From Mycolicibacterium smegmatis (GTDB lineage: Bacteria; Actinomycetota; Actinomycetes; Mycobacteriales; Mycobacteriaceae), in assembly GCF_001457595.1 (NCBI RefSeq), contig NZ_LN831039.1, forward strand, positions 4,650,001-4,682,000: DNA of 32,000 bases, given 5' to 3'. The position numbers and the translations under genes are program-made. The first letter of the stretch is position 1; every line of letters starts with the position of its first letter. The notes under the pieces are model-generated. The model was not told the DNA's origin. It was given only the letters and a program-made list of their open reading frames with translations, and made no database searches. Of the stretch, positions 7,525 to 29,503 are shown one piece after another.

Positions 7525-7561
7525 ACGCGACACACCAGGAGAAATCGGGAAGGAGCCCCCC

Positions 7562-8350
7562 GTGGTCACCGAAACCAGGACCACCCTCTACCAGAACCTG
7601 ACCTGGCCAGAGATTTCCGAGGCTGCGCACGACGGAACACCTGTCGTCATTCCCATCGGGGCCACCGAACAGCACGGGCATCACCTTCCGGTGTGCACAG
7701 ACTGGGTGCTGCCCGAACGCATCCTGCTGGAGGCCAGCAGGCACCGGCACTTCCTGGTCGGCCCGTTCATCCCGTTCGGGTACCGGAGCAGACCGGGAAG
7801 TGGTGGCGGGCAGCATATCCCGGGTACGGTATCGCTGCGGGCGACCACCTTCATGTCCATGTTGGAAGATGTTCTCGGCGAACTGATCCGCACCGGGTTC
7901 ACCAAGATCGTGTTGTACAACTGGCATTTCGAGAACAGCGGCTTCGTCTACGAGCCGGCGTTCATGGTCAGTGATCGGCACCCGGACGTGAAGATCGTCG
8001 TCATCGAGGATGTCAATCCGGAGTACACCCCTGAGCGGGTGGGACAGATCTGGCCGGACGAGTTCCCAGGTCTGGCATTGGAACACGCCGCGGTGATCGA
8101 GACCTCCTTGTGGATGCATCACTGTCCGGATCTGGTGCGCATCGGCGGCATCGCACCTGATCGCCCGCAACGTGTGGTCAACCACGATGTCCTCCCGATC
8201 GACCACAGGCTGTCCACCGCAAGCGGCGCGCTGTCCTCGCCGGTGCCCGCATCCGCCGACAAAGGCAAGCTGCTGACACAGTGGTTCGTCGAGCGGATCC
8301 TGAATGTGTTGGCGGACGAGTTTCCCACCACTGCCGGCGCAACAGGATGA
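7562..8350 (+). CDS. Creatininase (creatinine amidohydrolase) family protein
   Basis: Family signature VVIPIGATEQHGHHLPVCTDW. I prefer the GTG at 7562 because GGAAGGAG lies 7-8 nt upstream. The ATG at 7502, overlapping the permease by 23 nt, is the alternative. Confidence 0.85.
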   Translation: MVTETRTTLYQNLTWPEISEAAHDGTPVVIPIGATEQHGHHLPVCTDWVLPERILLEASRHRHFLVGPFIPFGYRSRPGSGGGQHIPGTVSLRATTFMSMLEDVLGELIRTGFTKIVLYNWHFENSGFVYEPAFMVSDRHPDVKIVVIEDVNPEYTPERVGQIWPDEFPGLALEHAAVIETSLWMHHCPDLVRIGGIAPDRPQRVVNHDVLPIDHRLSTASGALSSPVPASADKGKLLTQWFVERILNVLADEFPTTAGATG

Positions 8351-9300
8351 CCGCGGGCCCGATCGGGGCGGTGCCTGCCACCGAGGTCCCCAGATACGCA
8401 GGAAAAGCGACCTTCGCCAGGATCGCCGACATCCACGAAGTCGCCGACTATGACATCGCGATCCTCGGAGTGCCGTTCGATGGCGGAACGTCCTACCGAC
8501 CGGGTGCCCGATTCGGGCCGATGGCCGTACGGCAGGCCGCCAGAACACTCCGCCCGGACTTCCACGTCGAGTTAGGTGTCGCACCACTGCGGACCGTGCA
8601 GGTCGTCGACGCCGGGGACGTGACGGTCACGCCATATGACATCGAGACCGCGTGCACGCAGATCCAGGCACACGCCACCGAGATCCTCGGCGGCGCCGAC
8701 CGCAGGATCATCTCCATCGGCGGTGACCACACCATCGCACTGCCGAACCTACGAGCGTTGCACGCGGGTCACGGTCCGGTCGCCCTCGTACACTTCGACG
8801 CCCACCTGGACACCTGGGACACCTACTTCGCCGCGCCCGTCACCCACGGCACCATTTTCCGCAGAGCCTTCGAAGAGGGCCTCCTGGTCGAGGACCACTC
8901 GATCCACATCGGTATCCGAGGCCCGATCTATGACCGCGCGGACCTCGACGACGACGCCAGAATGGGGTTCCGGATCATCCGGGCGGGCGACCTGGACGTC
9001 GTCGGCATCGACGCCGCGGTCGACGCCGTGAAGCGTCGTGTCGGTGACACGCCGGTCTACCTGTCGGTGGACATCGACGTCCTCGACCCGGCGTTCGCCC
9101 CCGGGACGGGAACCCCCGAGTCCGGTGGACTGAGCGCTCGCGAATTGCTCGGCATGCTTCGGCGACTCAACGGCCTGAACCTGGTGGGCGCCGATGTTGT
9201 CGAGGTGGCTCCGGCCTACGACCACGCAGAGATCACGTCTGTCGCCGCCGCAACAGTGGTGTTCGATCTCGTTTCCCTGATGGTGAGAGGGTCCGGGTGA
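8347..9300 (+). CDS. Ureohydrolase (arginase/agmatinase/guanidino-acid hydrolase) family protein
   Basis: Mn-binding motifs GGDHTIALP, HFDAHLDTWD and SVDIDVLDPAFAPGTGTPESGGLS. The ATG at 8347 forms an ATGA overlap with the creatininase stop. Confidence 0.9.
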   Translation: MTAGPIGAVPATEVPRYAGKATFARIADIHEVADYDIAILGVPFDGGTSYRPGARFGPMAVRQAARTLRPDFHVELGVAPLRTVQVVDAGDVTVTPYDIETACTQIQAHATEILGGADRRIISIGGDHTIALPNLRALHAGHGPVALVHFDAHLDTWDTYFAAPVTHGTIFRRAFEEGLLVEDHSIHIGIRGPIYDRADLDDDARMGFRIIRAGDLDVVGIDAAVDAVKRRVGDTPVYLSVDIDVLDPAFAPGTGTPESGGLSARELLGMLRRLNGLNLVGADVVEVAPAYDHAEITSVAAATVVFDLVSLMVRGSG

Positions 9301-15687: not shown

Positions 15688-16431
15688 TCAGGAGACGGCC
15701 AACGCCCCGATGTCTTCGAAGGTCTTGAACACCTCGGCCTTGGTGACGGCCACGTCGGCATCGGCCGGATCACGCGGGAACGGCAGCGTGAGCTTGATGT
15801 CGTCGGCAAGGCGACCGCCCTTGGCGAACACCAGGATCCGGTTCGACAGCTCGACGGCCTCGCCGACGTCGTGCGTCACGAAGACCACGGTCTTGCCGGT
15901 CTCGGCCCAGATGGTGTGCAGTTCGCGCCGCAGCGTGCGCGCCGTGATCGCATCGAGGTGGCTGAACGGTTCGTCCATGAACAGCACATCGGGTTCGGTC
16001 GCGAAAGCGCGCGCGATGCCCACGCGCTGCTGCATGCCGCCCGACAGTTCCCCTGGGTACTTGTCCCCTTTGTCGCCGAGTTGCACCATCTCCAGGTAAT
16101 GCCGGCACCGCGCACGTGTATCGGGCGAGCGGTCCTTCTGGACGAACAGCATGTTGTCCATCACGCTGCGCCACGGCAGCAGCCGGGCGGCCTGGAACAC
16201 GTAGCCCGCGCGTGCCGGCCTGCCGTTCTCCGTGATGCTCACCCGGCCGCTGGTGGGCGTCTCGATGCCGCTGAGGATGTTCAGCAGCGTCGACTTTCCG
16301 CACCCGGACGCCCCGACGATCGATACGAAGGCGTGCCCGCTGATGCTCAGGTTCACGTTCTCCAGCGCGATGACCTTGTCGGCGCCGAGTCCGAATTCCT
16401 TGTGCAGGTTGGTGACAGAGATTTCAGCCAC
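15688..16431 (-). CDS. ABC transporter ATP-binding protein (NitT/TauT, SsuB/TauB-like)
   Basis: Walker A GASGCGKSTLL, signature LSGGMQQRVGIARA, Walker B LFMDEPFSHLD. The GTG start has an AGGAGA RBS embedded in the upstream permease gene. Confidence 0.9.
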   Translation of the reverse strand: MAEISVTNLHKEFGLGADKVIALENVNLSISGHAFVSIVGASGCGKSTLLNILSGIETPTSGRVSITENGRPARAGYVFQAARLLPWRSVMDNMLFVQKDRSPDTRARCRHYLEMVQLGDKGDKYPGELSGGMQQRVGIARAFATEPDVLFMDEPFSHLDAITARTLRRELHTIWAETGKTVVFVTHDVGEAVELSNRILVFAKGGRLADDIKLTLPFPRDPADADVAVTKAEVFKTFEDIGALAVS

Positions 16432-17473
16432 GGTCGTTTCTCCTGTCGTTGTCGGGCGCGCCCGGCGCCGTGGATGGGGGTTGGTCGTCGTTGGGGCCCT
16501 GGGTCACCAGGGTGATGCTGCCCAGCGCCGCGCTGGTGGTGGTGGCGCCGGTCTCGGCCGCCGCGACGGCGGCCTGGGCGGGAGCGTCGAAACGCTCCTC
16601 GACCACGTCGACCGCATCGATCGCCGGGCGCCACTTGAACAGGCGCTTCGACAACTGGTCGAACATGAACTTCTCGAAGATCAGCGCGAAGATGACGAAC
16701 AGCAGTGCATATCCGATGACGCCGTAGGCACGGTGCGCGTCGTACCAGAACTTGATGGTCCAGCCGGCCCCGTCCTGACCACCGAACACCTCGGCGACCA
16801 CCAGGCCCTTCCATCCGAGGGCGAAACAATACCGTGCGGCGGCGAACAGGAACGGCAACAACGACGGGATCAGCACGTGGCGGATCACGCGGTCGCGCGG
16901 CACGCCGAACGCGCGCGCCATGTCGTACAGATCCGTCGGCGTGTTCCGTACGCCCTCACGGACGTTGATGATCACGAACGGAACACCCGTCAGCACCACG
17001 GTGACGATCGGTCCGACGTCACCGAATCCGAAAGCCAGGCTGCAGAACAACGCCCACGCCAGGTTCGGCATCGCCAGGATCGCGACCACCCAGTCGTTGA
17101 AGAACGCGTCGACCGCTTTGGACAGGCCCATCGCGATGCCGATGACGGTTCCGATCACCATCGCGATCAGCATGCCGATGCCCAGCCGCTGCAAGGAGAT
17201 CCCGAACGTCACGTACATGTTGTGCGGCGCCAGGGTGTCACCCCGCAGCTCGTCGGCCATGAAACCGAACACCTGCCACGGTGTGGGCAGGACGTCCACC
17301 GCGAACGGCCAGATGGTGGTGACCGCCTTGATCGCGGCCAGCCAGAACAGCAGGCACACAACCGGGAACAGCAACCGACCTGCCCACGAACTGCGCATCA
17401 ACCACTGCCAGCCCGTGGTGAGGGCCGAGGGGCGCTCGTGGGCACCCACTTCGGAACGCGTCAGAACGCTCAT
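16424..17473 (-). CDS. ABC transporter permease (NitT/TauT family) with a low-complexity C-terminal tail of about 65 aa
   Basis: The internal ATG at 17473 (MSVLTRSE...) forms an ATGA overlap with the upstream permease stop. The product is a multi-span hydrophobic protein. The N-terminal 67 codons of the 17674 ORF are an Arg-rich shadow. Confidence 0.85.
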   Translation of the reverse strand: MSVLTRSEVGAHERPSALTTGWQWLMRSSWAGRLLFPVVCLLFWLAAIKAVTTIWPFAVDVLPTPWQVFGFMADELRGDTLAPHNMYVTFGISLQRLGIGMLIAMVIGTVIGIAMGLSKAVDAFFNDWVVAILAMPNLAWALFCSLAFGFGDVGPIVTVVLTGVPFVIINVREGVRNTPTDLYDMARAFGVPRDRVIRHVLIPSLLPFLFAAARYCFALGWKGLVVAEVFGGQDGAGWTIKFWYDAHRAYGVIGYALLFVIFALIFEKFMFDQLSKRLFKWRPAIDAVDVVEERFDAPAQAAVAAAETGATTTSAALGSITLVTQGPNDDQPPSTAPGAPDNDRRNDRG

Positions 17474-18309
17474 GACTTCAACTCCCCTCGCCAGGCGAAG
17501 AACCGGCGTTCGAGGGATTCCAGCACCACCTTGTCGAGGAACAGCGCGAGGACGTAGAACGCGAGGATCCAGGTGAGGAACTCGTCGAGCCGGAACAGCT
17601 GTGTGGCGGTGCGCATCTCGAACCCGATGCCCTGGGAGGCCGCGAACACCTCGGTCAGCACCGTCACCTTCCACGCGATCGAGAATCCGAACCGCACTCC
17701 GGTGAAGATGAACGGCGCGAGGTGCGGTACGACGATGTGGCGGTTGCGTTTCACCACCCCGACGTCGAACGACCTGCCCATGTCGATGAGATCCTTGGGC
17801 AGCGATTTGATGCCTTCGGCGATGTTCACGGTGATGAGCGCGAACGTGGTCAACACGATCGCGATGATCGGTCCCGCGGTGCGGTTTCCGAAGATTATCG
17901 CGGTGATCAGGGCCCAGATGAGCCCAGGTGTCGTGACACCGATGGTGACCGCGTCGCGGAAGAAGCCGTTGAGAAACCGGTTCTGCATGAGGATGCCGAT
18001 GGCCACCCCCACCACGAACGCGATCGCGAAACCGACCGCGATCCGCGACAGCGTCGTGGCGAACGCCCCGGGCACCTCACCGCTGGCCCAGAGTCGGCCG
18101 AACGTCTCGAACACCGTCGACGGCCCGGGCAGTAACCTCTCGTCCATCAGGTTGCCCGACGCGAGCTCCCAGATGCCGAGGAAGAACACGTAACCGGCGA
18201 TCCGCCAGCCCCACGTCGTGATGCGGTCTCTTCGCTTCGCCGCGCGGACGATGTCCTCTTCGCTCGTCCGCGCGGGGACGTTCGGGGGTGACTCCAAGGT
18301 GGTTGACAC
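17470..18309 (-). CDS. ABC transporter permease (NitT/TauT family)
   Basis: Hydrophobic multi-span protein (WRIAGYVFFLGIWELAS...). I prefer the GTG at 18309 because GAGAGG lies 6 nt upstream. The ATG at 18372, overlapping the SBP gene by 23 nt, is the alternative. Confidence 0.8.
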   Translation of the reverse strand: MSTTLESPPNVPARTSEEDIVRAAKRRDRITTWGWRIAGYVFFLGIWELASGNLMDERLLPGPSTVFETFGRLWASGEVPGAFATTLSRIAVGFAIAFVVGVAIGILMQNRFLNGFFRDAVTIGVTTPGLIWALITAIIFGNRTAGPIIAIVLTTFALITVNIAEGIKSLPKDLIDMGRSFDVGVVKRNRHIVVPHLAPFIFTGVRFGFSIAWKVTVLTEVFAASQGIGFEMRTATQLFRLDEFLTWILAFYVLALFLDKVVLESLERRFFAWRGELKS

Positions 18310-18349
18310 AAGTCGCCTCTCGTCTATCGATGAACTCGTCGTGTACGGG

Positions 18350-19414
18350 TCACGAGGTCTTCGCCGCCTCATAGCGCGGGGTCGGGGCGTCGGGGGCCAG
18401 ATAGTTCGCGTTCGCGGGGTTGAGCTGCTTCATCAGGTTCCAGATCTCGGTTTCCGCCGGGATCCAGGCCGGGTCGAGCGCAACCTTGTCGACGAACCAG
18501 TTGTTGTCGCCGGACATGAATTGGATGAGCCAGTCGATGTCCTCGGAGCTCTCCACCGAGAAGTGTTGCGGGTACTTGCGAATCACGTCCGCTTTCTGCT
18601 CCTGGAACATGTCGACGCCCTGCTGCCAGAGGTCGAGGAACTTGATCGCGAGGTCGGGGTGCGCGTCGTACCACTCCTCGGTCGCGGTGAAGGTGTTGCC
18701 CACGACGTGCAGCTGGTCGTCGCTGTTGGGTGCGAACTCCTTGTACAGCTGGAACGGCAGCTCACCGCCGTACATGATCTCGAGCTCACCCTTGCGCAGC
18801 TGCGGCACGGCTGCCTCGGGAATGACAGCCGCGGCTTCGCAGTCACCGCGCAGCAGGTTGGTCGGGTTCACGAAGTGGTCGTTGACGAGAAGATCGAAAT
18901 CGCCGCCGCCGACGCGGTAGTCGAGGCCGTGCATCTGCTGGGCCAGCACGGTCCAGAACGCGGTGTTGGAGGTGGGGCCGGACACGCAGATCTTCGAGCC
19001 CTTCGGGATGTCCTCCAGCGTCTCGTACGGATCGCCTGCCCGTTTCAGCATCGGGACCCGCTGGTAGTTGTATTTGCCGAAGGTGACGGTCTTGATTCCG
19101 GTCTGTTGTTCGAGAACCGGGACTTCCTGCGTGGACATCGAGACGATGTCTCCGTGCCCGCCGGCGAAGTAGGTGAACTCGTCCCACGTCGAGCTGGTCT
19201 CGATCCGGATGTTGTTCTCCTGCTCCCACTTGGCCCTGGTTCCCGAATCGGTCAACAGATCCCATACCGGATCCGGTGCGAACGCGAACCTGATGACCTG
19301 CGGTCCGCCGGACTCCTGCTCGCCGGATTTCCCGCATCCCACGAGCGCCGTCAGCGCGAGTGCCGCGGCCCCAGCCACACACGCCGCTTTCCTGGCCGCT
19401 TTCTTGACCTTCAC
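18350..19414 (-). CDS. ABC transporter substrate-binding lipoprotein (NitT/TauT / SsuA-NMT1-like)
   Basis: Signal peptide plus lipobox MKVKKAARKAACVAGAAALALTALVGC. GTG start at 19414. Confidence 0.85.
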   Translation of the reverse strand: MKVKKAARKAACVAGAAALALTALVGCGKSGEQESGGPQVIRFAFAPDPVWDLLTDSGTRAKWEQENNIRIETSSTWDEFTYFAGGHGDIVSMSTQEVPVLEQQTGIKTVTFGKYNYQRVPMLKRAGDPYETLEDIPKGSKICVSGPTSNTAFWTVLAQQMHGLDYRVGGGDFDLLVNDHFVNPTNLLRGDCEAAAVIPEAAVPQLRKGELEIMYGGELPFQLYKEFAPNSDDQLHVVGNTFTATEEWYDAHPDLAIKFLDLWQQGVDMFQEQKADVIRKYPQHFSVESSEDIDWLIQFMSGDNNWFVDKVALDPAWIPAETEIWNLMKQLNPANANYLAPDAPTPRYEAAKTS

Positions 19415-19420
19415 GGTGGT

Positions 19421-19427
19421 CCTCCTT
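19421..19427 (-). promoter_or_regulatory. Shine-Dalgarno AAGGAGG for the substrate-binding protein gene
   Basis: Plus-strand cctcctt is AAGGAGG on the minus strand, 6 nt upstream of the GTG at 19414. Confidence 0.7.
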
Positions 19428-19669
19428 CATGCACGACAGATTGTGACGCGTGCCACTCAGTACAGTGCCAGCTTTCGGATTGACCTATGTCGGCGTCCGT
19501 GAATTTCGCCAGCGGTGGGTGTCGCGGCCTGTGACGTGCACCGAATCCGTCCGGCCACGGTGACGAAAGCCGTGATGTCGGCCCGAGAAATTCGATCTGA
19601 CCGCCACTGATCCGGGGCGCCCACTCACCTTGACTGGACGTGCCTGTCCCTCGCGACCCGGAGGATCCA

Positions 19670-20758
19670 ATGCGACTCGGCTACTTCGCAATGCCCCTGC
19701 ACCCAGTCGGCCGACCCTGGTCGGAAACCCTGCGTGAGGACCGGGAGGCGGTGATCCTGGCCGACCGGCTGGGATTCCACGACGCGTTCATCGGCGAGCA
19801 CCTGACGGACCGCCACGAGAACATCACCAACAGCCTGGTGTTCCTCGCGACGCTGATCTCCGACACCCGGCAGATCCGTCTGGGCACCGGGACCACGAAC
19901 CTGTCGCAGCAGCACCCCGTGCTGGTCGCCGCCAACTCTGCGATGTTCGACCACCTCGCCGACGGCCGGTTCATCCTCGGCATCAGCGCCGGCGCGCTGC
20001 CCTCGGATGCCGAGGCACTCGGCATCCTCGACCAGGACCGCAACGCGATCTTCGCCGAGGCCATCGATGTGATCACCGCGATCTGGGAATCCGAGCCGCC
20101 CTACTCCCTGGTCCGCGACGGCGGCCGGTTCTCCGTGACGACCGAGAAGACCTACGACCCCGATCTGGGGGTGGGAATCCTGCCCAAGACCCTGCAACAG
20201 CCGCGACCGGAGATCGTGGGCACCGTGGTGGCCCCGTTCTCCAAGGGCGTGATCACCATGGGGGCCCGGGACTTCCACCCTCTGTCGGCCAACTTCCTGC
20301 TGCCGCAGTGGGTTTCCACGCACTGGCCAAATTACGTGCAGGGCAGGGAATCGGTAGGGGCGCAGGCCGACACCGCTGACTGGCGGGTGGCCAGGACGGT
20401 GTTCGTCGCCGACGATGCCGCGGTGGCCGAGAGCTACGGCCGCGACGATCCCCGTAGCCCGTACCGCTACTACTACTCCAAGATGCTGACCAAGATGCGC
20501 AAGATCGGTCGCCTCGAGCTGTTCAAGACGCACCGCGAACAACCCGACGACGAGGTCACCCTCGATGGCGTGCTCGACCAACTGGTCATCACCGGAACCC
20601 CGGAGGCGGTGGCCGACCAGTTGCGGCGGTTCCAGGAAGAGGTCGGCGAGTTCGGTGAGCTCGTGTACGCGGGACTGGACTGGGTGGATCCCGATCTGGC
20701 GCGACGGTCCATGGAACTCATGGCCGAAAAGGTCATGCCGATGGTGAACGCGGGCTGA
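19670..20758 (+). CDS. LLM-class (luciferase-like) flavin- or F420-dependent monooxygenase/oxidoreductase
   Basis: The ATG at 19670 is preceded by GGAGGA. MRLGYFAMPLHP...ADRLGFHDAFIGEH is a typical LLM N-terminus. Confidence 0.85.
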   Translation: MRLGYFAMPLHPVGRPWSETLREDREAVILADRLGFHDAFIGEHLTDRHENITNSLVFLATLISDTRQIRLGTGTTNLSQQHPVLVAANSAMFDHLADGRFILGISAGALPSDAEALGILDQDRNAIFAEAIDVITAIWESEPPYSLVRDGGRFSVTTEKTYDPDLGVGILPKTLQQPRPEIVGTVVAPFSKGVITMGARDFHPLSANFLLPQWVSTHWPNYVQGRESVGAQADTADWRVARTVFVADDAAVAESYGRDDPRSPYRYYYSKMLTKMRKIGRLELFKTHREQPDDEVTLDGVLDQLVITGTPEAVADQLRRFQEEVGEFGELVYAGLDWVDPDLARRSMELMAEKVMPMVNAG

Positions 20759-20759
20759 C

Positions 20760-21314
20760 ATGGTCGAACAGGCATCCGCCGACCGGCTGCCCATGCCTGA
20801 ATCGCTCGACCCGGAGCAGCGACGTGCGGTGGAGCGGATTACGTCCGGACCGCGCGGCGGGCTGTTCGGCCCGTTCGTCCCGCTGCTACGGGCACCTGAA
20901 CTGATGACCCGTGTGCAACTCGTCGGCGAATACCTGCGATTCGAGTCCGAACTGCCGGATCACCTGCGCGAGTTGCTCATTCTGCTCGTCGCGCGTGACT
21001 GGGACCAGGACTTCGAATGGGGCCACCACGTGCCGCTGGCACGCGCCAGCGGGCTGGGCGAGGACGTCATCGCGACGATCGCTGCCGGCGGCGCACCCGT
21101 CGGCCCGACCGACGTGCGCGCGTTCTGGCGGCTGGCCGCCGAACTCGTGCGCGGCCATGCCGTCGGCGACGCCACGTTCGCCGACGCGGTGGCGGCCGCC
21201 GGTGAGGTCGCGGTCGTGGAGGCGATCGTCACGATCGGTTACTACACGACGCTGGCGATGACCATGAACGCCGCGCGCACACCGATTCCCGACGACTACG
21301 AGAGGCTGCCGTGA
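20760..21314 (+). CDS. Carboxymuconolactone decarboxylase (CMD/AhpD-like) family protein
   Basis: RELLILLVARDWDQDFEWGHHVPLARASG matches the CMD-family core. It starts 1 nt after the LLM stop. Confidence 0.8.
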   Translation: MVEQASADRLPMPESLDPEQRRAVERITSGPRGGLFGPFVPLLRAPELMTRVQLVGEYLRFESELPDHLRELLILLVARDWDQDFEWGHHVPLARASGLGEDVIATIAAGGAPVGPTDVRAFWRLAAELVRGHAVGDATFADAVAAAGEVAVVEAIVTIGYYTTLAMTMNAARTPIPDDYERLP

Positions 21315-22039
21315 GCACACCACTGGTTTTCCTGCACCCCTTGGGAGCCGACCGCAGCTTCTGGACGGTGGTCACCGCGGAGCTGGGCGGTCGTGACCAT
21401 GTCGCGCTCGACCTGCCCGGTCACGGTTCGGCCGCTGTGCTGCCGCGCGGCGCCGGCATCGCCGCGTTCGCCGACGCGGTGACCGGGCAACTCGATCCCG
21501 GCACTCGGATGCACCTGGTCGGTATGTCGCTGGGCGGCATCGTGGCTCAGCAGATCGCCTTGGACCGGCCGGACCTCGTCGCGTCGGTCGTGCTGGTGGA
21601 CACGATGCCGGTCTACCCGGAGCCCATGCGCCAGATGTGGCGTGACCGGGCCGCCGTCGCCCGCCGCGGCGAATTGGCGAGCCTGGTCGAACCAATGGTC
21701 GAGATGTGGTTCACGCCTGAACTTTCGGCCGCCGGCGACGCGCGGGTGAGGCATGCGCGTGAGGTATTCGCGCGCACCGACCCCGAGGGTTACGCGCGCT
21801 CGTGCGATCTGCTCGCCGAGGTGGATCTCAGCGAACGTCTTGCCGCGCTGCGGGTTCCCGCCGTGGTGGTGTGCGGCCGCGACGACGCGCAGCCCTTCCG
21901 CGACGCGGCGGTTTCGATGGCCAGGAGCACCGGTGCGGCCGCTGTGCACTGGCTGCCCGGCAAGCACGCGTGCGCCGTCGAATCGCCGCGCCTGTTCGCC
22001 GAACTGCTCGACGACCGGCTGGTCACGCCTGGCCGATAG
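21311..22039 (+). CDS. Alpha/beta hydrolase (3-oxoadipate enol-lactonase-like)
   Basis: Nucleophile elbow VGMSLGG. LVFLHPLGADRSFW is a typical N-terminus. GTGA overlap with the CMD gene. Confidence 0.85.
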   Translation: MSTPLVFLHPLGADRSFWTVVTAELGGRDHVALDLPGHGSAAVLPRGAGIAAFADAVTGQLDPGTRMHLVGMSLGGIVAQQIALDRPDLVASVVLVDTMPVYPEPMRQMWRDRAAVARRGELASLVEPMVEMWFTPELSAAGDARVRHAREVFARTDPEGYARSCDLLAEVDLSERLAALRVPAVVVCGRDDAQPFRDAAVSMARSTGAAAVHWLPGKHACAVESPRLFAELLDDRLVTPGR

Positions 22040-23327
22040 CGGGCAGCAGCCGCACGAGCCGGGCGGCCACCTGCAACTCGGTGCGACGCTCGGCCAACGG
22101 GCGCCCGATCAGTTCCTCGACCTTGTGCAGGCGATTACGCACGGTGTGCTCGTGCAGTTGCAGGTGCTCGGCTGCCGCGACGTGGGAGCCGAACCGGAAC
22201 GACGCCTCCAGCGTCTCACGTAGTCGCGCGGCCTCGACCGTATCCCGCGCGAGCGGCCCGAGTTCGCGTTCGACGAACTGTCGGGCCCGGTCGGGATCAC
22301 GCATGAGCAGGATCTCCAGACCGACGTCGTCGTGGCGCACCACCGCGGGAGCACCCGAGTCCCCCCACGCCGCCCGGATCCGTTCGGCGTCCATGGCCTC
22401 CTCCAGGCTCTCGCGGAATCCGTCGATACCCACGCTTGGTCCGCCGAGCGTCGCAACCACCCCAGCCTCTCTCAACACACCATCGAGAGCTTCCAGGATG
22501 GCCGGCTTCCACTCGCCGATACGCCCGAGCCACACGACCGTCGAGCTCAGCGTGAGCGGGTAGACCAGCGAATGCTGACAGCTGACGGCGGCACGCATGC
22601 CGACCGAAAGTTGTGTCGCGGCACCCTCGGCCAGCGTCGGCAGCAGTACCGCGATGTGGCGGCAGCTCAGGTCGTAGGACAGGATCGCGGTGTCCGACAC
22701 CGCGAGTGTGTTGCCCTCACCCCTCAGGATCTCCTTCACGAGATTGCGTCGCATGTGCGCGCGCGAGCGGTTGAGGGCCTCGTAGTCGCGCGTGTAGGTC
22801 TCCGCAACCTGTGAGGCGACGAAATCCTGATAGCCCAGGATCGTCTGCGTCAGCAGTTGCATCGCGAGCGCCGCCTCGTCGCGGTCGATGTCGCGCTCGA
22901 CGATCACCTGGCGCAGGAAAGCGGTCCAGGCCTCCCACATCGTGAAAAAGCTGACGCGGTAGGACCTCTGCATCGACTTCTGCGGTATCCGCAGCTGGGC
23001 CTGCACCGTCGCGAACGACAGCACCTGCTCGAGATAGACGTCCTCCAGGGCGATGTCGCCCGCGATGACCGATCGCAGGCAGTGCGCGTTGGCCCGGGTA
23101 CTCGCTGTCAGGTGGGCGCGGAACTCGTCATCGCCGATGTGGTTGGGAAACGCGATGCCCAGGCAGCGCCCGATGATGACGTCGACAAGCCCGTCCACGT
23201 CGAACCCGCGCGCGACGTCCTGCACCCAGGACGGCACAGGCCGCTCGTCACGCCACAGGTTCAACGGCGCCGGCATCGCATCGGCGGGCGAGTTGGTGTC
23301 AGCAGTCCGGTGAGCAGTCGTCGACAT
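22023..23327 (-). CDS. PucR-type (PucR C-terminal HTH) transcriptional regulator
   Basis: C-terminal HTH AAAEHLQLHEHTVRNRLHKVEELIGRPL. I prefer the ATG at 23327 (GAGG 9 nt upstream); the GTG at 23372 is the alternative. Its 3' end overlaps the convergent hydrolase gene by 17 nt. Confidence 0.8.
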   Translation of the reverse strand: MSTTAHRTADTNSPADAMPAPLNLWRDERPVPSWVQDVARGFDVDGLVDVIIGRCLGIAFPNHIGDDEFRAHLTASTRANAHCLRSVIAGDIALEDVYLEQVLSFATVQAQLRIPQKSMQRSYRVSFFTMWEAWTAFLRQVIVERDIDRDEAALAMQLLTQTILGYQDFVASQVAETYTRDYEALNRSRAHMRRNLVKEILRGEGNTLAVSDTAILSYDLSCRHIAVLLPTLAEGAATQLSVGMRAAVSCQHSLVYPLTLSSTVVWLGRIGEWKPAILEALDGVLREAGVVATLGGPSVGIDGFRESLEEAMDAERIRAAWGDSGAPAVVRHDDVGLEILLMRDPDRARQFVERELGPLARDTVEAARLRETLEASFRFGSHVAAAEHLQLHEHTVRNRLHKVEELIGRPLAERRTELQVAARLVRLLPAIGQA

Positions 23328-23418
23328 CCAGATGCACCTCGGTGGGTTGTTCAATGGTGCGACCTGCGTCACACCTTGCCGCGATGGTAGCCGGAAATGG
23401 ATGCATCGTGGGCGCGCC

Positions 23419-24411
23419 TCATCGCACCGTTTCGACCGCGCCGGTGTGCGCCGAGCGGGTGATCGCCTCGAACGTGCACGCGTTGGCGACCATCTCGTCG
23501 AGCGGGACCGGGTAAGGCGCCTTCCCGGCTACCGCCTTGGCGAAGGTTTCGATGTTCTCACGCACCGATGCATGCGGCGGATAGAACTGTGACGTGGCCG
23601 GTCTGCCACGCAGTTGGCGGGTGACGTCCCAGCCCTGGGGCGCCTCGGGATGTGTGCGGTCCCGGATCTCCACCCAGCCCTCCGAGCCGAGCACGGTCAC
23701 GCGGCCGACGAACGGCGTTGTGAGAACCGCGGTGATCAGCGCGGTCTGGCCCTTCTCGAAGGCCAGCGTGATCGCGAGGGTGTCGCCGTTGGCGAATGTG
23801 GTTGCCTGCGTCGACAATCGCGCCCACACCTCGGTGGGTCTGCCGAGGATGCTGATCGCCAGGTCGACCAGATGGATGCCGGTCGCCGACAGCGGGCCGA
23901 CCGGCGCCTCGACCGCCGAGAGCCGCCAGTTCTCGGCGGGCAGGTCGAGGAACTTGTCCTGGCTGAAGTTGCCCTCGAAGATCAGGGGCACCCCGAGTTC
24001 GCCGTCGGCGATCGCCCGTCGCATGTCGGCCACGGCAGGTTCGAAGCGACGCTCGTGCCCGATCCCGAGTTGCAGGCCCGCGTCCTTGACCGCCGCGACC
24101 GCCCGCCGGGCGTCCTCCCCCGAACCGCTCAGCGGCTTCTCACAGAAGACGTGCTTTCCGTGCGCGGCGGCCGCGATGATCTGCTCGACGTGAAATTTGT
24201 GTGGGGTGCACAGGATCACCGCGTCGACGGAGTCGTCGCGCAGGACCTCGTCGAAACTGTCGTGGACGTCCGCGACGAACGGACGCGCCGCGGCGCGGGC
24301 GTCGGCACTGATGTCCACCCCGGTCACCACCTGGACGTCATCGCTGCCAGACAGGTCGCGGACGACCTTGCCACCCCACCATCCGAGTCCCACAACGGCT
24401 GCATTGATCAC
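23419..24411 (-). CDS. Gfo/Idh/MocA family oxidoreductase
   Basis: MINAAVVGLGWWGG Rossmann N-terminus, VFCEKPLSGS, GTG start. Confidence 0.85.
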   Translation of the reverse strand: MINAAVVGLGWWGGKVVRDLSGSDDVQVVTGVDISADARAAARPFVADVHDSFDEVLRDDSVDAVILCTPHKFHVEQIIAAAAHGKHVFCEKPLSGSGEDARRAVAAVKDAGLQLGIGHERRFEPAVADMRRAIADGELGVPLIFEGNFSQDKFLDLPAENWRLSAVEAPVGPLSATGIHLVDLAISILGRPTEVWARLSTQATTFANGDTLAITLAFEKGQTALITAVLTTPFVGRVTVLGSEGWVEIRDRTHPEAPQGWDVTRQLRGRPATSQFYPPHASVRENIETFAKAVAGKAPYPVPLDEMVANACTFEAITRSAHTGAVETVR

Positions 24412-24611
24412 ATCGAACAGTCAAGGGCCCGGCCGAACCTCGTGCATTGTCGTCGAACGTGAACTTCGCGGCCCGACGTGTCGGAATCCGTCACCGGTCA
24501 AGCGGGCCGTGTCCCCATGCGCCATCGATCCCCGCCCAGATTCACGAAGTCCGTGAGTGATTGCCGGGCGCCGCGCCCGTTCAATTGAGGGCGACAGTGC
24601 TACGACAGGAG

Positions 24612-25766
24612 ATGCTCGTGACCCAGGACTATGTGACCACCGGGGGTGGGGTCGACACGGACCTGTTCCGGCATGTCGCCGGCCACCTGGCAAGTGGCGT
24701 GACCGTCGTGACGACCCGCGCCGACGACCGTGACTACGGTATGACCGCCAGCTCGGTCACCTCCCTGTCGATGGAGCCGCCGATGATGCTGGCCTGCATC
24801 AACAACGCGGTGCCCACGGCGGCCGCCATCGAGCGCAGTGGCCGCTACACCGTCAACGTGCTGGGTCAGTCACACGCAGATCTCGCGCATCAGTTCGCCG
24901 CCCCGCGACCGGACAAGTTCGCCGGGGTGTCGGTCGAACGCGGGATCGCCGACGTGGTCATCCTGACCGACGCGATAGCCGCACTCGAATGCGAGGTGAC
25001 CGAACAGGTGATCGGGGGAACGCATTCGGTGTTCTTCGGATTCGTGGTGTCGGCGACCGCTCGCGACGGTGCTCCGCTGACCTACTTCCGTGGCGGCTTC
25101 GGCAGATTCGAGTTCGAGTGCAACGACAACGCCTACGCGCGGGCCCGGGACATGGTGCTCAGCCGGGTGTTCACCGCCGAGCAGGTGGTCACGGTCGACG
25201 AACTCGCCGACCGTCTCGAAGGTGACCGGGCGCAGGCGTTCTACGCGCTCACCCGGCTCGCGGCCGACGGTTTGGTGTTGCGAGACCCACAGCGGGGCTA
25301 CGTCATCGCACCGTTCGACATCAAGACATCCGACTACACCTTCGAGGCGCGGCTCGCGATCGAGCTCGGTGTCATCGACTGCGTCGGGGACCATGCCGAC
25401 CCCGCCCAGCTCGCGATCGCCCGCCACCACCTCGAGACGATGTCGCGGCACCTCGTGGGTGACCGGTTCGAGGACTTTCATGCCTACCTCGACGCGAACT
25501 ACGCATTCCACGAAGCGATCGTCGCATTGACCGGGAACCCGTTGCTGATCGCGGCGTTCGGCTCGCTGAGCATCAAGAACGTCATGATGCGCAGCTTCGG
25601 GAACACGGCCCAGTCGTCCACCGCATTCCTCGCAGCCCAGCGCGACCTCCTCGAGGCACTCGAACGTGGCGACACCGTGGGCGCCCGTGAAGCCGCACGG
25701 AGTTACTGTGCGCTCGCCAAAGCCCGCACGCGCCAGCTTCTCTCGCTCACCGGCGGCCTGTTCTAG
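24612..25766 (+). CDS. Fusion protein: flavin reductase-like (HpaC/NmoB-type FMN-binding) domain + GntR-family wHTH + FCD ligand-binding domain
   Basis: Reductase-like part: FRHVAGHLASGVTVVTT...GMTASSVTSLSMEPPMMLACI...THSVFFGFVV (about nt 24657-25109). wHTH: VTVDELADRLEGDRAQAFYALTRLAADGLVLR (about 25131-25310). FCD: FEARLAIELG...YAFHEAIVALTGNPLL (about 25332-25730). The start is ATG 24612 or GTG 24618 (AGGAG at 24607-24611); the TTG at 24561 is unlikely. Confidence 0.75.
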   Translation: MLVTQDYVTTGGGVDTDLFRHVAGHLASGVTVVTTRADDRDYGMTASSVTSLSMEPPMMLACINNAVPTAAAIERSGRYTVNVLGQSHADLAHQFAAPRPDKFAGVSVERGIADVVILTDAIAALECEVTEQVIGGTHSVFFGFVVSATARDGAPLTYFRGGFGRFEFECNDNAYARARDMVLSRVFTAEQVVTVDELADRLEGDRAQAFYALTRLAADGLVLRDPQRGYVIAPFDIKTSDYTFEARLAIELGVIDCVGDHADPAQLAIARHHLETMSRHLVGDRFEDFHAYLDANYAFHEAIVALTGNPLLIAAFGSLSIKNVMMRSFGNTAQSSTAFLAAQRDLLEALERGDTVGAREAARSYCALAKARTRQLLSLTGGLF

Positions 25767-26602
25767 GCCAGCCGGGTGATCTCCACGACGACGTCGAGGT
25801 CAGTGGAGCCCTCGCCCGAGTAGATTCCCTTGAGCGGCGCCACATCCGAGTAGTTGCGGCCCACACCGACGCTGACGTACTGCTCGTTGATCTCGGAGTC
25901 GTTGGTGGGGTCGTAATCCCACCAGCCGCCGGTCCACGCCTGCACCCACGCATGGCTCTGGCCGTCGATGGTGTCGCCGACGGCCGCCTCGCGTGTGGGA
26001 TGCAAATAGCCCGAGACGTAACGTGCAGGAATTCCCATGCCACGCAACATGATCAACGACAGATGCGCGAAATCCTGGCATACGCCTTTGCCCTCGCGCA
26101 GCGCGTCGAGCCCCGACGAGTGCACGCCCGTGGTGCCGGGCACGTAGTCCAGTTCACTGCGCACCCATTGCGCGGCCGCGATCACCGCCTCATACGGGTC
26201 GTGCTCCTTGGCAATACTCCGGCCGACGCGTTCGATGCGCTTGCTGCACGGTGTGTAGTGCGTGGGGGCGAGCACCTCGTCGAACCGGTCGATGACCGCC
26301 TCGGTCCGCAGATCGTCCCAACTGACCGGCTCTTCGGGTTTCTCACCGACCTCGGTCTCGACCACCGACGACGACGTCACCTCGAGTTCGGCGTGTGGCG
26401 CATGCAGGTCGAACGCCGTGACCGCGGTCCCCCAGTAGTCCACATACCGGTAGGACCGGGTGGCGGGAACCGTCTCGACGCGGTTGAGGATCACGTTCTG
26501 CCGCGAGTCCGAACGCGGCGTCAGCCGAACCTCGTTGAACGACGCGGTCACCGGCGACTTGTAGGCATAGCCCGTCGAGTGCACCACGCGCAAACGCCAC
26601 AT
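25763..26602 (-). CDS. Transglutaminase-like family protein (Bact_transglu_N + transglutaminase core; Rv2409c-like)
   Basis: N-terminus MWRLRVVHSTGYAYKSPVTASFNEVRLTP. Apparent Cys/His/Asp triad in GVCQDFAH, SHAWVQAW, WDYDPTN. Confidence 0.9.
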   Translation of the reverse strand: MWRLRVVHSTGYAYKSPVTASFNEVRLTPRSDSRQNVILNRVETVPATRSYRYVDYWGTAVTAFDLHAPHAELEVTSSSVVETEVGEKPEEPVSWDDLRTEAVIDRFDEVLAPTHYTPCSKRIERVGRSIAKEHDPYEAVIAAAQWVRSELDYVPGTTGVHSSGLDALREGKGVCQDFAHLSLIMLRGMGIPARYVSGYLHPTREAAVGDTIDGQSHAWVQAWTGGWWDYDPTNDSEINEQYVSVGVGRNYSDVAPLKGIYSGEGSTDLDVVVEITRLA

Positions 26603-27580
26603 CTAGATCTCACCTTCCTCGATGACCAGTGCGTCCCCGCGCCCCGCGTCGGTCCACGCGACCCAGGGTGCCGAGTGGAAGTACTGCTGCGCCAACGCTT
26701 CTCCGACGTCACGGCAAGTCTTCTGCAGACCGGCCAGGCGCGTCTCCAACGATTCCAGCAGCGCGCCCGGCTGCAGGAACTCCAGCTCACTGCGGGCCCG
26801 GCCCAGCAGTCGCTGCGCCTCGTCGGTGGCACCGAGACGGTTGTGCGGCCGGTTGAGCAACTCGTCGAGGTTGTGTTCGGCCAGCCGCAGCGAGTGGAAA
26901 ATCGACCGAGGGAACAACCGGTCGAGCATCATGAACTCGACGACTCGCCCGGCGTCGAGCACGCCACGGTAGGTGCGCAGGTAGGTGTCGTGCGCGCCGG
27001 CCGAGCGCAGCAGCGTCACCCATGCGGGTGACGACGCGCTGTCGCCCACCCGCGAGAGCAGCAACCGCACGGTCATGTCGACACGCTCGATCGCGCGGCC
27101 GAGCACCATGAACCGGTAGCCGTCGTCACGGCTCAAGGTCGAGTCGGCGAGCCCGGCGAACATCGCGGCCCGGCCTTCGACGTACGACAGGAACTCGTGG
27201 GGGCCAAGGCGTTTCGCGGCCCGCTCGCGCTCGGCGAGCGCGTTGTAGGTGGTGTTGAGGCATTCCCAGATCTCGGTCGAGGTCACCTCGCGGGCGCCGC
27301 GGGCGTTCTCGCGGGCGGCGGAGATGGCGTCGACGATCGAAGCGCCGCCATACGTGCCGCGGCTGAACGCGACGATGTCGGTCAGCGACCACACGTCGAG
27401 CCGCTCGCGGGGCGGGTCGATCCCCAGCACTCGCAGCAGCGTCCGCGACGCCTGGTCCGGGTCGACGCTGGAGTCCTCCAGCAGTTGGTGCACCGTCACG
27501 TCGAGGATGCGTGCGGTGTCGTCGGCCCGCTCCACGTAGCGGCCGATCCAGTACAACGATTCGGCATTGCGCGCCAGCAT
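26603..27580 (-). CDS. Alpha-E domain protein (DUF403; Rv2410c-like)
   Basis: MLARNAESLYWIGRYVERADDTARILDV is the hallmark N-terminus. Its stop TAG directly abuts the transglutaminase ATG. Confidence 0.9.
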   Translation of the reverse strand: MLARNAESLYWIGRYVERADDTARILDVTVHQLLEDSSVDPDQASRTLLRVLGIDPPRERLDVWSLTDIVAFSRGTYGGASIVDAISAARENARGAREVTSTEIWECLNTTYNALAERERAAKRLGPHEFLSYVEGRAAMFAGLADSTLSRDDGYRFMVLGRAIERVDMTVRLLLSRVGDSASSPAWVTLLRSAGAHDTYLRTYRGVLDAGRVVEFMMLDRLFPRSIFHSLRLAEHNLDELLNRPHNRLGATDEAQRLLGRARSELEFLQPGALLESLETRLAGLQKTCRDVGEALAQQYFHSAPWVAWTDAGRGDALVIEEGEI

Positions 27581-27589
27581 CGGATTTCC

Positions 27590-29263
27590 TTACTGCTGCT
27601 GCTGTTGCTGCTGGGACGAGTTGTCTGCGGCGCTGTCGGCCTTGGGGCCTCTGCCCGACTTGGGCAGTGCCCGCACCACTTCGGCGGCCGCGAGCTCGCG
27701 GTCGGCGACCGAGGCCCGCGAGGCCAACACCCAGGTGTCTTTGGAACCGCCGCCCTGGCTGGAGTTCACCACCAGGGAGTTCTCAGGCAGCGCCACGCGG
27801 GTCAGCCCACCCGGCAGCACCCACACGTCGTTGCCGTCGTTGACCGCGAACGGGCGCAGGTCGACGTGGCGCGGAACCAGCTTGTTGTCGATCTGCGTCG
27901 GCACGGTCGACAACTGCATCACCGGTTGGGCGATCCAGGCGCGGGGATCGTTGCGGATCTTCTTGGCGATCGTGGTGAGTTCCTTGGGCGTCGCGTCCGG
28001 GCCGAACACGATGCCGTAACCGCCGGAGCCCTCCACGGGTTTGATGACGAGCTCCTCGATGCGGTCGAGAACCTCCTCGCGCTCGTCGTCGAGCCAGCAG
28101 CGGTAGGTGTCGACGTTGGCCAGCACGGGTTTCTCACCGAGGTAGTACTCGATGATGGTCGGCACGTAGGTGTAGACGAGCTTGTCGTCGCCGACACCGT
28201 TGCCGACCGCGCTGGAGATCACCACGTTGCCTGCGCGCGCGGCGTTGAGCAGACCCGCGACGCCGAGCACCGAATCCGGGCGGAACTGCATCGGGTCGAG
28301 GAACGCGTCATCGATGCGGCGGTAGATGACGTCGACCTGGCGCTCCCCCTCGGTGGTGCGCATGTAGACGACGTTGTCGCGGCAGAACAGGTCGCGGCCC
28401 TCGACGAGTTCGACGCCCATCTGCCGCGCCAGCAGCGAGTGCTCGAAGTACGCAGAGTTGTAGACGCCGGGGGTGAGCACGACGACCGTGGGATCGGCCA
28501 CGTTGGTGGGGGCCGCGTTGCGCAGCGCCCTCAGCAGGTGCGACGCATAGTCGCCGACGGCGCGCACCCGGTGCGTGGCGAACAGGTTCGGGAAGACCCG
28601 GGCCATGGTGCGCCGGTTCTCCATCACGTAGGACACTCCCGACGGAGACCGCAGGTTGTCCTCCAGCACCCGGAAGTCGCCCTTGTCGTCGCGGATCAGG
28701 TCGATGCCCGCGACGTGGATGCGCACCCCGTTGGGCGGGACGATGCCCGCGGCCTCACGGTGGAAGTGTTCACACGACGTCACCAGCCGGCGCGGGATCA
28801 CGCCGTCCCGCAGGATCTCCTGCTCGCCGTAGATGTCGTCGAGATACATCTCGAGGGCTTTGACGCGTTGCCGGATGCCGCGCTCAAGACGCGACCATTC
28901 GGCCGCCGAGATCACCCGCGGAACGAGGTCGAGCGGGAAGGGGCGCTCCTGGCCGGACAGCGAGAACGTGATGCCTTGGTCGGTGAAGGCGCGGCCGAGC
29001 GCGTCGGCGCGAGCCTGCAACTCCGACGCGTCGGTGGGAGCGAGCTCGGCGAAGATGCCCTTGTACGGTCCGCGGACGTTGCCGGACGCGTCGAACATCT
29101 CGTCGAACGCCTTCGCGTAGTGACCCAGTTTGTTGTAGCCGTCGAACACGCCCCGCTGTTTGACGCGCGCGCTGCTCCCGGTGGCGTTGCGCGATGACCG
29201 CGCCGTCTCGGTCGGCAAGACTTTCTCGGCTCCTCGTGCTCGGGTGCGGGTTGGGGCGTCCAT
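27590..29263 (-). CDS. Circularly permuted type-2 ATP-grasp protein (Rv2411c-like amidoligase) ending in seven glutamines
   Basis: Family-typical sequence throughout (FDGYN...AFDEMFD..., ...VIYRRIDDAFLDP..., ...VGNGVGDDKLVY...). I prefer the ATG at 29263 over the TTG at 29329, but neither has a strong RBS. Confidence 0.85.
   Translation of the reverse strand: MDAPTRTRARGAEKVLPTETARSSRNATGSSARVKQRGVFDGYNKLGHYAKAFDEMFDASGNVRGPYKGIFAELAPTDASELQARADALGRAFTDQGITFSLSGQERPFPLDLVPRVISAAEWSRLERGIRQRVKALEMYLDDIYGEQEILRDGVIPRRLVTSCEHFHREAAGIVPPNGVRIHVAGIDLIRDDKGDFRVLEDNLRSPSGVSYVMENRRTMARVFPNLFATHRVRAVGDYASHLLRALRNAAPTNVADPTVVVLTPGVYNSAYFEHSLLARQMGVELVEGRDLFCRDNVVYMRTTEGERQVDVIYRRIDDAFLDPMQFRPDSVLGVAGLLNAARAGNVVISSAVGNGVGDDKLVYTYVPTIIEYYLGEKPVLANVDTYRCWLDDEREEVLDRIEELVIKPVEGSGGYGIVFGPDATPKELTTIAKKIRNDPRAWIAQPVMQLSTVPTQIDNKLVPRHVDLRPFAVNDGNDVWVLPGGLTRVALPENSLVVNSSQGGGSKDTWVLASRASVADRELAAAEVVRALPKSGRGPKADSAADNSSQQQQQQQ
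27593..27613 (-). repeat. Trinucleotide (CAG/CAA)7 tract encoding the C-terminal QQQQQQQ of the ATP-grasp protein
   Basis: The plus strand reads ctgctgctgctgttgctgctg immediately before the stop (tta at 27590-27592). Confidence 0.9.
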
Positions 29264-29503
29264 CCACACATGCTGCACCACCCGTGACGTTTTTGCCCGG
29301 CCAACGCAAACCGCGTTTCGGCAGGCCAACGCGGGGTTGCGGTGGTACTACAGTCAGGCGTAGGTATGCCCACTTGCGGCCTCGGCAATCGCTCTTTTGG
29401 GGGTTCGGGGCCCTCACTGGTACCCTGAACAGTCGCTGCCCACAGTGCGGGCGGACCCACAGACTTCGGTAACCCCAGCTAGAGATTCAGAAGGAACTTC
29501 TTC

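Follow-up and report, generated by a model that had tools for sequence, protein, structure and literature searches.

In two-component flavin monooxygenases, a reductase that runs without substrate is liable to waste NADH and release H2O2, and the only well-studied solution that we know of to such an uncoupled reductase is the MarR-like gate of C1 and NtaB. The C-terminal domain of C1, the reductase of the A. baumannii p-hydroxyphenylacetate (HPA) 3-hydroxylase, is homologous to the MarR-type repressor NadR, and its helix equivalent to the recognition helix obstructs the NADH site and thereby auto-inhibits the enzyme (PMC11618861). The oxygenase substrate HPA binds to this C-terminal domain, and a flexible loop relays the signal that releases the block, with NADH binding becoming 80-fold tighter and hydride transfer 20-fold faster (PMC11618861). 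NtaB and the reductase of the P. putida HPA hydroxylase (HPAH) are further long reductases that are stimulated by the oxygenase substrate (PMC11618861). Here, we describe a gene located in a 32,000-nucleotide stretch of the Mycolicibacterium smegmatis genome (contig NZ_LN831039.1, positions 4,650,001 to 4,682,000; hereafter the window), which joins a flavin reductase domain to a GntR-like winged helix and an FCD effector domain. The fusion protein is probably the effector-gated NAD(P)H:flavin reductase component of a two-component monooxygenase, in which the luciferase-like monooxygenase (LLM) encoded at positions 19640-20758 would be the oxygenase.

Like C1, the fusion consists of an N-terminal HpaC-type reductase, a flexible linker and a C-terminal domain derived from a transcription factor, and has a separate oxygenase as its presumed partner. 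The extra domain of C1 is MarR/NadR-like and about 125 amino acids (aa) long, whereas that of the fusion comprises a GntR winged helix and a full FCD domain (about 210 aa), and C2, the partner of C1, is not of the LLM class. NtaB (nitrilotriacetate monooxygenase component B of Chelatobacter) and the P. putida HPAH reductase are also long-form reductases with an extra C-terminal domain, and NtaA, the oxygenase partner of NtaB, presumably belongs to the LLM superfamily, as does the putative partner of the fusion. However, the C-terminal domains of these two reductases have been modelled as C1-like and not as GntR/FCD (PMC11618861). An earlier note on this DNA, made from the sequence alone, stated that reductases of the HpaC/NmoB type normally stand alone; this needs correction, in that C1, the P. 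putida HPAH reductase and NtaB all carry a regulator-derived C-terminal effector domain (PMC11618861). HpaC, PheA2, CtcQ, RutF and Fred share the fold, the sequence family and the presumed role beside an oxygenase with the fusion, but they are only about 150-200 aa long and unregulated at the protein level, whereas the fusion adds a sensor module of about 215 residues. The order of a winged helix followed by an all-helical FCD domain is that of the FadR-subfamily GntR-FCD regulators (TM0439, 3fms; Atu1419, 6z74; LldR), from which the fusion differs in that its winged helix is internal rather than N-terminal and its DNA-contact arginines are replaced.

The fusion gene and its domains

The gene is contained in an uninterrupted open reading frame (ORF) at 24561-25766 on the forward strand, which has a coding-type G+C content at third codon positions (GC3) of 0.85 in a window with 66.6% G+C. 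Its parts are as follows, with residues counted in the 382-aa form:

24618..25766, forward strand: fusion gene, 382 aa, with flavin reductase, linker, GntR-like winged helix and FCD domain
24681..25106, forward strand: Flavin_Reduct domain of the HpaC/NtaB type, aa 22-163 (Pfam PF01613)
25086..25127, forward strand: inter-domain linker, aa 157-170 (YFRGGFGRFEF...), with low model confidence
25128..25307, forward strand: GntR-like winged helix-turn-helix, non-canonical, aa 171-230
25341..25703, forward strand: FCD effector-binding domain, aa 242-362

A sequence resembling a ribosome-binding site, AGGAGA, ends 1 base before the ATG at 24612, but 6-7 bases before the GTG at 24618. Because of this spacing, and because the orthologues in the databases are 382 aa long, GTG 24618 is more likely to be the true start, with ATG 24612 as the alternative.

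The earlier note had read three domains in a single ORF, which agrees with the uninterrupted frame and the Pfam matches, and all peptide motifs quoted there are present in the translation. In the hidden Markov model (HMM) scan that it had proposed, all three domains scored above the Pfam cutoffs (residues here counted from ATG 24612): Flavin_Reduct at aa 24-165 (E=1.6e-41, cutoff 27), GntR at aa 173-232 (E=5.3e-8, 32.8-32.9 bits, cutoff 27), which is marginal, and FCD at aa 244-364 (E=2.1e-16, 60.9 bits, cutoff 24.3). With 142.4 bits, the N-terminal domain, for which the note had allowed that it might fail to match the reductase profiles, is clearly recognized as such.

The note had also considered a sequencing error concealing a stop codon or frameshift, or an assembly that joins two genes. 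The probability of such an artefact is negligible. The 382-aa protein is on record, with 99% identity, from several M. smegmatis and M. goodii assemblies, where it is named “flavin reductase” or, in older annotations, “nitrilotriacetate monooxygenase component B”. A continuous protein of about 382 aa recurs in independent assemblies of many genera; each of the best 120 homologues listed combines Flavin_Reduct and FCD at roughly this length, with GntR unscored in five. The fusion is encoded in 78 of 80 fetched genome loci, all from Actinomycetota, which span the Mycobacteriaceae, Nocardioidaceae, Micromonosporaceae, Streptosporangiales, Pseudonocardiaceae, Geodermatophilaceae and Microbacterium. 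Moreover, the linker between the domains is the most conserved segment of the protein, with a majority fraction of 0.90 as compared to 0.73-0.77 for the domains. No support was found for an artefact, and the orthologues in independent assemblies and in the fetched loci rule it out.

By its sequence matches, no part of the fusion is more canonical than the reductase domain. The related sequences in the PDB include CtcQ (8ct0, E=3.9e-24), NTA-MoB (3nfw) and C1 (5zc2), and Foldseek gave a probability of 1.00 for the domain against C1, CtcQ, NTA-MoB, PheA2 and HpaC. The fusion protein as such reached no NCBIfam equivalog cutoff. A tblastn search of the whole 32,000-nucleotide window recovered no second Flavin_Reduct domain, in agreement with the earlier note.

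Structural comparison and proposed mechanism

An AlphaFold2 model was built from an alignment of 62 sequences, in which the domains were modelled with confidence (mean predicted local distance difference test, pLDDT, 81). Inter-domain contacts in the model were discarded as unusable, with a predicted template modelling score (pTM) of 0.54 and pLDDT values below 50 for linker residues 157-168. The best Foldseek match in the PDB was C1 (5zyr/5zc2, E of about 1e-13), with an alignment of 257-268 columns that covers the reductase and the winged helix, while the winged helix and the FCD domain align end to end with TM0439 (3fms/3sxy, E=4e-6). Features in common with the C1 mechanism are the extremely conserved linker, whose counterpart in C1 is the loop that relays the effector signal, aromatic residues that do not vary at the face of the “recognition” helix, and a conserved arginine, R18, which aligns with Arg20 of C1 by alignment coordinates only.

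The analysis shows the domain architecture, its conservation and its genomic linkage to oxygenases, whereas reductase activity, allosteric gating and an effector drawn from the pathway are inferred. The GntR/FCD half would be a module taken over from a regulator to act as an in-built sensor of the effector. The FCD pocket would bind a metabolite of the pathway, and the conserved linker and winged helix would pass the signal to the reductase domain, such that reduced flavin would be made only when the oxygenase has substrate. Gating flavin reduction in this manner would avoid NADH waste and the formation of H2O2, as shown for C1.

The FCD pocket contains a set of residues that are conserved in the family (R245, E249, D292, N294, H298, R325, Q341 and Y363). 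Since Q341 and Y363 stand where TM0439 has two histidines, the alignment suggests a ligand site that is specific and possibly metal-independent.

Of all parts of the protein, the winged helix conforms least to the canonical form. Controls scanned in the same manner scored higher than the fusion with the GntR profile, namely 71.6 bits for E. coli FadR and 56.5 bits for a standalone GntR/FCD protein from these clusters, and MarR profiles gave only sub-threshold matches of 14-17 bits (Pfam). We compared the positions equivalent to R35, R45 and R49 in FadR, the residues that contact DNA in the FadR-DNA structures. The R35 equivalent is a glutamate or aspartate in 61 of the 62 orthologues, the R45 equivalent is variable (R in 27, Q in 12, P in 10), and the R49 equivalent is phenylalanine in all 62, followed by an invariant tyrosine. 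The corresponding residues in the wider family are D/A/E, R/P and Y/F/H. Thus, the conserved DNA-contact arginines of the FadR type were retained neither in the 62 orthologues nor in the wider family. Taken as a test of DNA binding, the net charge of the winged helix averages -3.3 in the fusions and ranges from +2 to -2 in four controls, with ranges that overlap too widely to decide.

Gene neighbourhood and the candidate oxygenase

The LLM and the GFO/IDH/MocA dehydrogenase genes were found by Pfam as the earlier note had described them. The genes surrounding the fusion are:

15688..19414, reverse strand: ABC transporter with binding protein (18350-19414), two permeases and ATPase (15688-16431) (Pfam)
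19640-20758, forward strand: LLM (Pfam, NCBIfam)
20760-21314, forward strand: carboxymuconolactone decarboxylase (CMD)/AhpD-like protein (Pfam, NCBIfam)
21311-22039, forward strand: PcaD-like alpha/beta hydrolase (ABH) (Pfam, NCBIfam)
22023-23372, reverse strand: PucR-like regulator (Pfam)
23419-24411, reverse strand: GFO/IDH/MocA dehydrogenase (GFO), divergent from the fusion (Pfam)
25763-29329, reverse strand: transglutaminase, Alpha-E and circularly permuted ATP-grasp triad, convergent with the fusion

We called and clustered the genes in the 80 loci and then repeated the search with tblastn to avoid losses in gene calling, using a radius of 10 kb. Because several contigs are short, the resulting counts among the 78 fusion loci are lower bounds. 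An LLM gene, with 53-88% identity to that of the window, was found in 63 of the 78 loci, as was a CMD gene (63/78). Hydrolase, GFO and PucR-like genes were present in 59, 57 and 55 of these loci, respectively, and the transporter binding protein in 24.

The order of these genes differs among taxa. It is LLM>CMD>ABH>PucR<GFO<FUS> in the Mycobacteriaceae, where FUS is the fusion gene, and ABH<CMD<LLM<FUS> in the Geodermatophilaceae and Pseudonocardia, in which the LLM gene is adjacent to and divergent from the fusion. In Microbacterium and Aeromicrobium, the fusion gene is located downstream of the LLM, CMD and hydrolase genes on one strand, and in Aeromicrobium its start overlaps the stop of the hydrolase gene by 4 nucleotides. 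The linkage between the fusion and the LLM has thus outlasted several rearrangements of gene order. That the fusion could serve as reductase partner of the LLM located about 4 kb upstream, as proposed in the earlier note, is strongly backed by this synteny and by the fusion containing the sole reductase domain of the window. The LLM, CMD/AhpD-like and PcaD-like hydrolase genes (19640..22039) presumably form the oxygenase operon that this reductase would serve.

The best match to the LLM in the PDB was 3,6-diketocamphane 1,6-monooxygenase (4uwm, E=1.4e-20, full length), an FMN-dependent enzyme that relies on a separate reductase. The LLM scored below every NCBIfam cutoff, those of the RutA and NtaA equivalogs included.

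The LLM, which has the type II Baeyer-Villiger enzyme 3,6-diketocamphane monooxygenase as its nearest match, the CMD/AhpD-like protein, the PcaD-like enol-lactonase and the GFO-type dehydrogenase make up a conserved, uncharacterized catabolic module (19640-22039 and 23419-24411). A dehydrogenase, an LLM of the Baeyer-Villiger type and a lactonase-like hydrolase together suggest a possible route from alcohol to ketone to lactone to acid. In other genera, the module gains genes for an aldehyde dehydrogenase (ALDH), a 3-hydroxyisobutyrate-dehydrogenase-like protein, an amidohydrolase, a cyclase, an asparaginase and an FAD-monooxygenase, and this set of genes hints at the breakdown of a nitrogen-containing ring or lactone. 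We also attempted to assign the cluster to a known pathway. This assignment was rejected, as no NCBIfam equivalog was obtained for the LLM and the resemblances to the Rut and pyridine (Pyr) pathways were unconfirmed.

Relatives with and without the winged helix

An exhaustive HMMER search of 1.84 billion representatives yielded 15,081 matches at E<=1e-3, of which 194 were at E<=1e-30. Among 75 full-length representatives with 29-47% identity, Flavin_Reduct was identified in all 75, FCD in 74 and GntR in 59 (E<=1e-3). We scanned the best 150 representatives at 50% identity with local domain HMMs, by which 93 contain the reductase, winged helix and FCD domains. A further 26 of the 150 have complete reductase and FCD domains in about 300-335 aa without a winged helix, the absence of which was confirmed by Pfam for three two-domain proteins. 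In this sister class, which includes P0139, P0147, P0164 and 23 others, the reductase is fused directly to FCD.

The three-domain architecture is thus common, as the earlier note had allowed, but the other half of its suggestion, that it might already be characterized, gained no support: our literature search found neither a characterized Flavin_Reduct-GntR-FCD protein nor a study of the M. smegmatis gene. A census of 62 GntR regulators in M. smegmatis contains no entry of 382 aa (PMC2018728). The architecture is best placed, as a widespread and uncharacterized variant, within the known class of two-component reductases that are under allosteric control.

The gene contexts of distant relatives are informative about the partners. 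P0147, which has no winged helix, is preceded by genes for a PucR-like regulator, an Amidohydro_2 protein, an LLM, an acyl-CoA synthetase and an ALDH, in this order, and P0342 has an LLM gene divergent from it. P0373 (376 aa; locus L087, 2271-4986) is divergent from an HpaB-type oxygenase, with an IclR regulator adjacent, while P0338 is located downstream of a standalone GntR/FCD gene with no LLM within 7 kb. One two-domain example (locus L081, 8001-8963) is part of an LLM operon whose first gene encodes a PucR-like regulator with a GAF domain. Since the L087 member pairs with an HpaB-type oxygenase and not with an LLM, the fusion family would serve more than one oxygenase class. Common to these contexts is a reductase joined to a ligand domain next to a two-component oxygenase, in most cases with another regulator nearby. 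In the loci as a whole, a separate regulator is usually co-encoded, be it PucR-like (55/78 loci), IclR (L087) or a standalone GntR. The 26 of 150 representatives without a winged helix further show that what is conserved is the coupling of the reductase to a ligand domain, and not to DNA binding; without this helix, the two-domain relatives are not transcription factors.

These data also bear on the suggestion in the earlier note that the fusion is a GntR regulator that senses flavin or the redox state. As a pure transcription factor, it would use the reductase-like domain only for sensing, and a general cellular reductase would feed the LLM. Formally, the architecture does hold a complete GntR/FCD regulator, and the gene is divergent from GFO in 38 of the 67 loci in which it was called. 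However, it is the reductase domain that is the most canonical part of the protein, the pairing with oxygenases of two classes is conserved, and the conserved cluster holds no other reductase, such that this explanation appears very improbable. Of the earlier suggestion, the matches to the GntR and FCD profiles stand, while the regulatory role is weak, given the least canonical helix, its loss in two-domain relatives and the PucR-like regulator in most loci. Likewise, the divergent GFO gene is present as the note had stated, but its interpretation as the target of the fusion is weak and unproven.

Promoter palindromes and a possible role in DNA binding

Palindromes were found in the intergenic regions by reading the sequences, followed by degenerate scans. 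Two types of sites were recognized, D1 and D2, and those in the window are:

24479..24493, no strand assigned: D1 palindrome TGTCGGAATCCGTCA (consensus TGACGG-N3-CCGTCA, 15 bp), 68 nucleotides upstream of the GFO start
24445..24463, reverse strand: D2-type site TTCACGTTCGACGACAATG, promoter-proximal with respect to GFO, at a distance of 30 bp from D1 (motif scan)
24541..24559, forward strand: D2-type site TTCACGAAGTCCGTGAGTG, 20 nucleotides upstream of the -10-like TTCAAT (24580-24585) of the fusion gene
19591..19609, forward strand: D2-type site TTCGATCTGACCGCCACTG, 20 nucleotides upstream of TTGACT (19630-19635) and the LLM start (read by eye)
19561-19575: D1-like site TGACGAAAGCCGTGA, 30 bp upstream of the LLM-facing D2 (read by eye)
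19485..19503, reverse strand: D2-type site TTCACGGACGCCGACATAG, 20 nucleotides upstream of TGTACT, facing the ABC-transporter operon (read by eye)

Nine loci, the window among them, have D1 67-68 nucleotides upstream of the GFO start, and more than 20 loci have it 93-135 nucleotides upstream of the LLM start. In loci where both sites were scored, the related D2 (TTCACG-N5-CG.(G/C)A.TG) follows D1 downstream at exactly 30 bp; D2 is 20 nucleotides upstream of a -10-like T..A.T hexamer. The layout of D2 and -10 element upstream of the fusion recurs at orthologues in other genera, and sites equivalent to the LLM-facing pair are also present upstream of the LLM in other loci. The arrangement of D1, D2 and -10 is common to four divergent promoters of the cluster (regions 24412-24617 and 19415-19639), and was also seen in the loci L001-L080 ahead of the LLM, GFO and fusion genes. 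The TTGACT hexamer lies only 4-7 nucleotides before the GTG starts of both LLM and GFO, a distance that suggests leaderless transcripts for these two genes.

The scans differed in their yield. A window scan with GTGAANTTCAC gave 26 matches as compared to 8.8 expected, most of which are intragenic, with only those at 19499 and 24459 in the relevant intergenic DNA; the transporter-facing D2 overlaps the GTGAATTTCGC match at 19499. An exact enumeration of gapped palindromes with arms of 5-6 nucleotides in 44 intergenic regions returned almost nothing and was too strict, and a scan of the window for TCACG-N5-CCGTGAGT with 3 mismatches showed no enrichment relative to shuffled sequences and missed the window's own sites, for which its spacer was one base too long.

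These sites raise the possibility that the fusion is a trigger enzyme, that is, both the reductase of the LLM and a DNA-binding regulator. Without effector, it would occupy the TGACGG-N3-CCGTCA palindromes between the GFO and FUS genes and between the transporter and LLM genes, and binding of the effector to FCD would free the DNA and switch the reductase on. Several observations speak for this: the GntR match is above the Pfam cutoff, the winged helix and its wing are strongly conserved, and the palindromes, paired with a second site, keep a fixed distance to the starts of GFO, LLM and FUS in many genera. Moreover, they are kept in loci of Paractinoplanes and Spirillospora that encode neither a PucR-like regulator nor a standalone GntR within 10 kb, which speaks against a simple assignment to PucR, although binding by the fusion is not thereby proven. 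On the other hand, the canonical DNA-contact arginines are replaced family-wide, the winged helix is lost in the 26 representative relatives, and the fusion is the last gene of the enzyme operon in some genomes. The palindromes could belong to the PucR-like or other regulators that most loci encode, or equally to a regulator encoded elsewhere, and their sequence alone does not assign them to the fusion. Furthermore, the core of the palindrome, AC...GT, differs from the GT-N-AC core that is usual for GntR operators. Operators of GntR regulators for comparison are listed in PMC2018728. Taken as a whole, this dual role is conceivable but tentative. The more specific proposal, that the fusion represses the cluster via TGACGG-N3-CCGTCA with a single ligand event switching both transcription and catalysis, is rather doubtful. 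Should the fusion nevertheless be a trigger enzyme, its relatives that lack a winged helix would descend from such proteins and have kept the enzymatic switch alone.

Some of these data must at the same time be counted against the effector-gated reductase that we favour. The winged helix, including the wing, is under strong purifying selection and matches the enzyme domain in its conservation; R213 and R222 are retained across the wider family, as a DNA-binding role would also predict; and the palindromes persist in the above-mentioned Paractinoplanes and Spirillospora loci. In addition, the inter-domain geometry of the AlphaFold2 model is uncertain at a pTM of 0.54, which leaves a C1-like obstruction of the NADH site by the recognition helix hypothetical, no NCBIfam family model settles whether the LLM uses FMN or F420, and the mechanism of C1 may not transfer to the fusion, because the C-terminal module of the latter is GntR/FCD and not MarR.

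Other genes in the window

The two ABC permease ORFs on the reverse strand (16424-17674 and 17470-18372) overlap by about 200 nucleotides as listed from the first possible start, and the downstream permease probably starts later than the mechanical ORF call. At the other end of the cluster, the stop of the transglutaminase/Alpha-E/ATP-grasp triad overlaps that of the fusion by 4 nucleotides; this combination is a familiar conserved gene set without an assigned function. Another complete regulator of the PucR family, with a PucR N-domain and HTH_30, is encoded at 1839-3338 on the reverse strand, near genes for an amino-acid permease and for creatininase-family and arginase-family proteins (6109-9300), and together these look like a separate nitrogen-compound catabolic unit. 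The segment 9400-15650 on the forward strand encodes two Amidohydro_2 proteins, two GFO/IDH/MocA proteins, an Ldh_2 dehydrogenase and a fumarylacetoacetate-hydrolase-family protein, the gene for which (cluster c13) accompanies the transporter in 12 further loci.

Implications

Our findings suggest that a second solution to the problem of the uncoupled reductase has evolved, which uses another sensor, the GntR/FCD module. The family is widespread: the orthologous group has about 80 loci, at 50% identity there are at least 93 clusters with three domains and 26 with two, and the pairing with both LLM and HpaB oxygenases adds to its breadth. It may represent an evolutionary series from regulator to enzyme gate. 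A ligand-controlled reductase module of this kind could serve in biocatalysis and biosensors. For M. smegmatis, the gene provides a candidate allosteric reductase in a tractable model organism, and an entry point to a catabolic cluster that comprises a transporter, an LLM, a CMD protein, a lactonase-like hydrolase, a GFO dehydrogenase and a PucR-like regulator.

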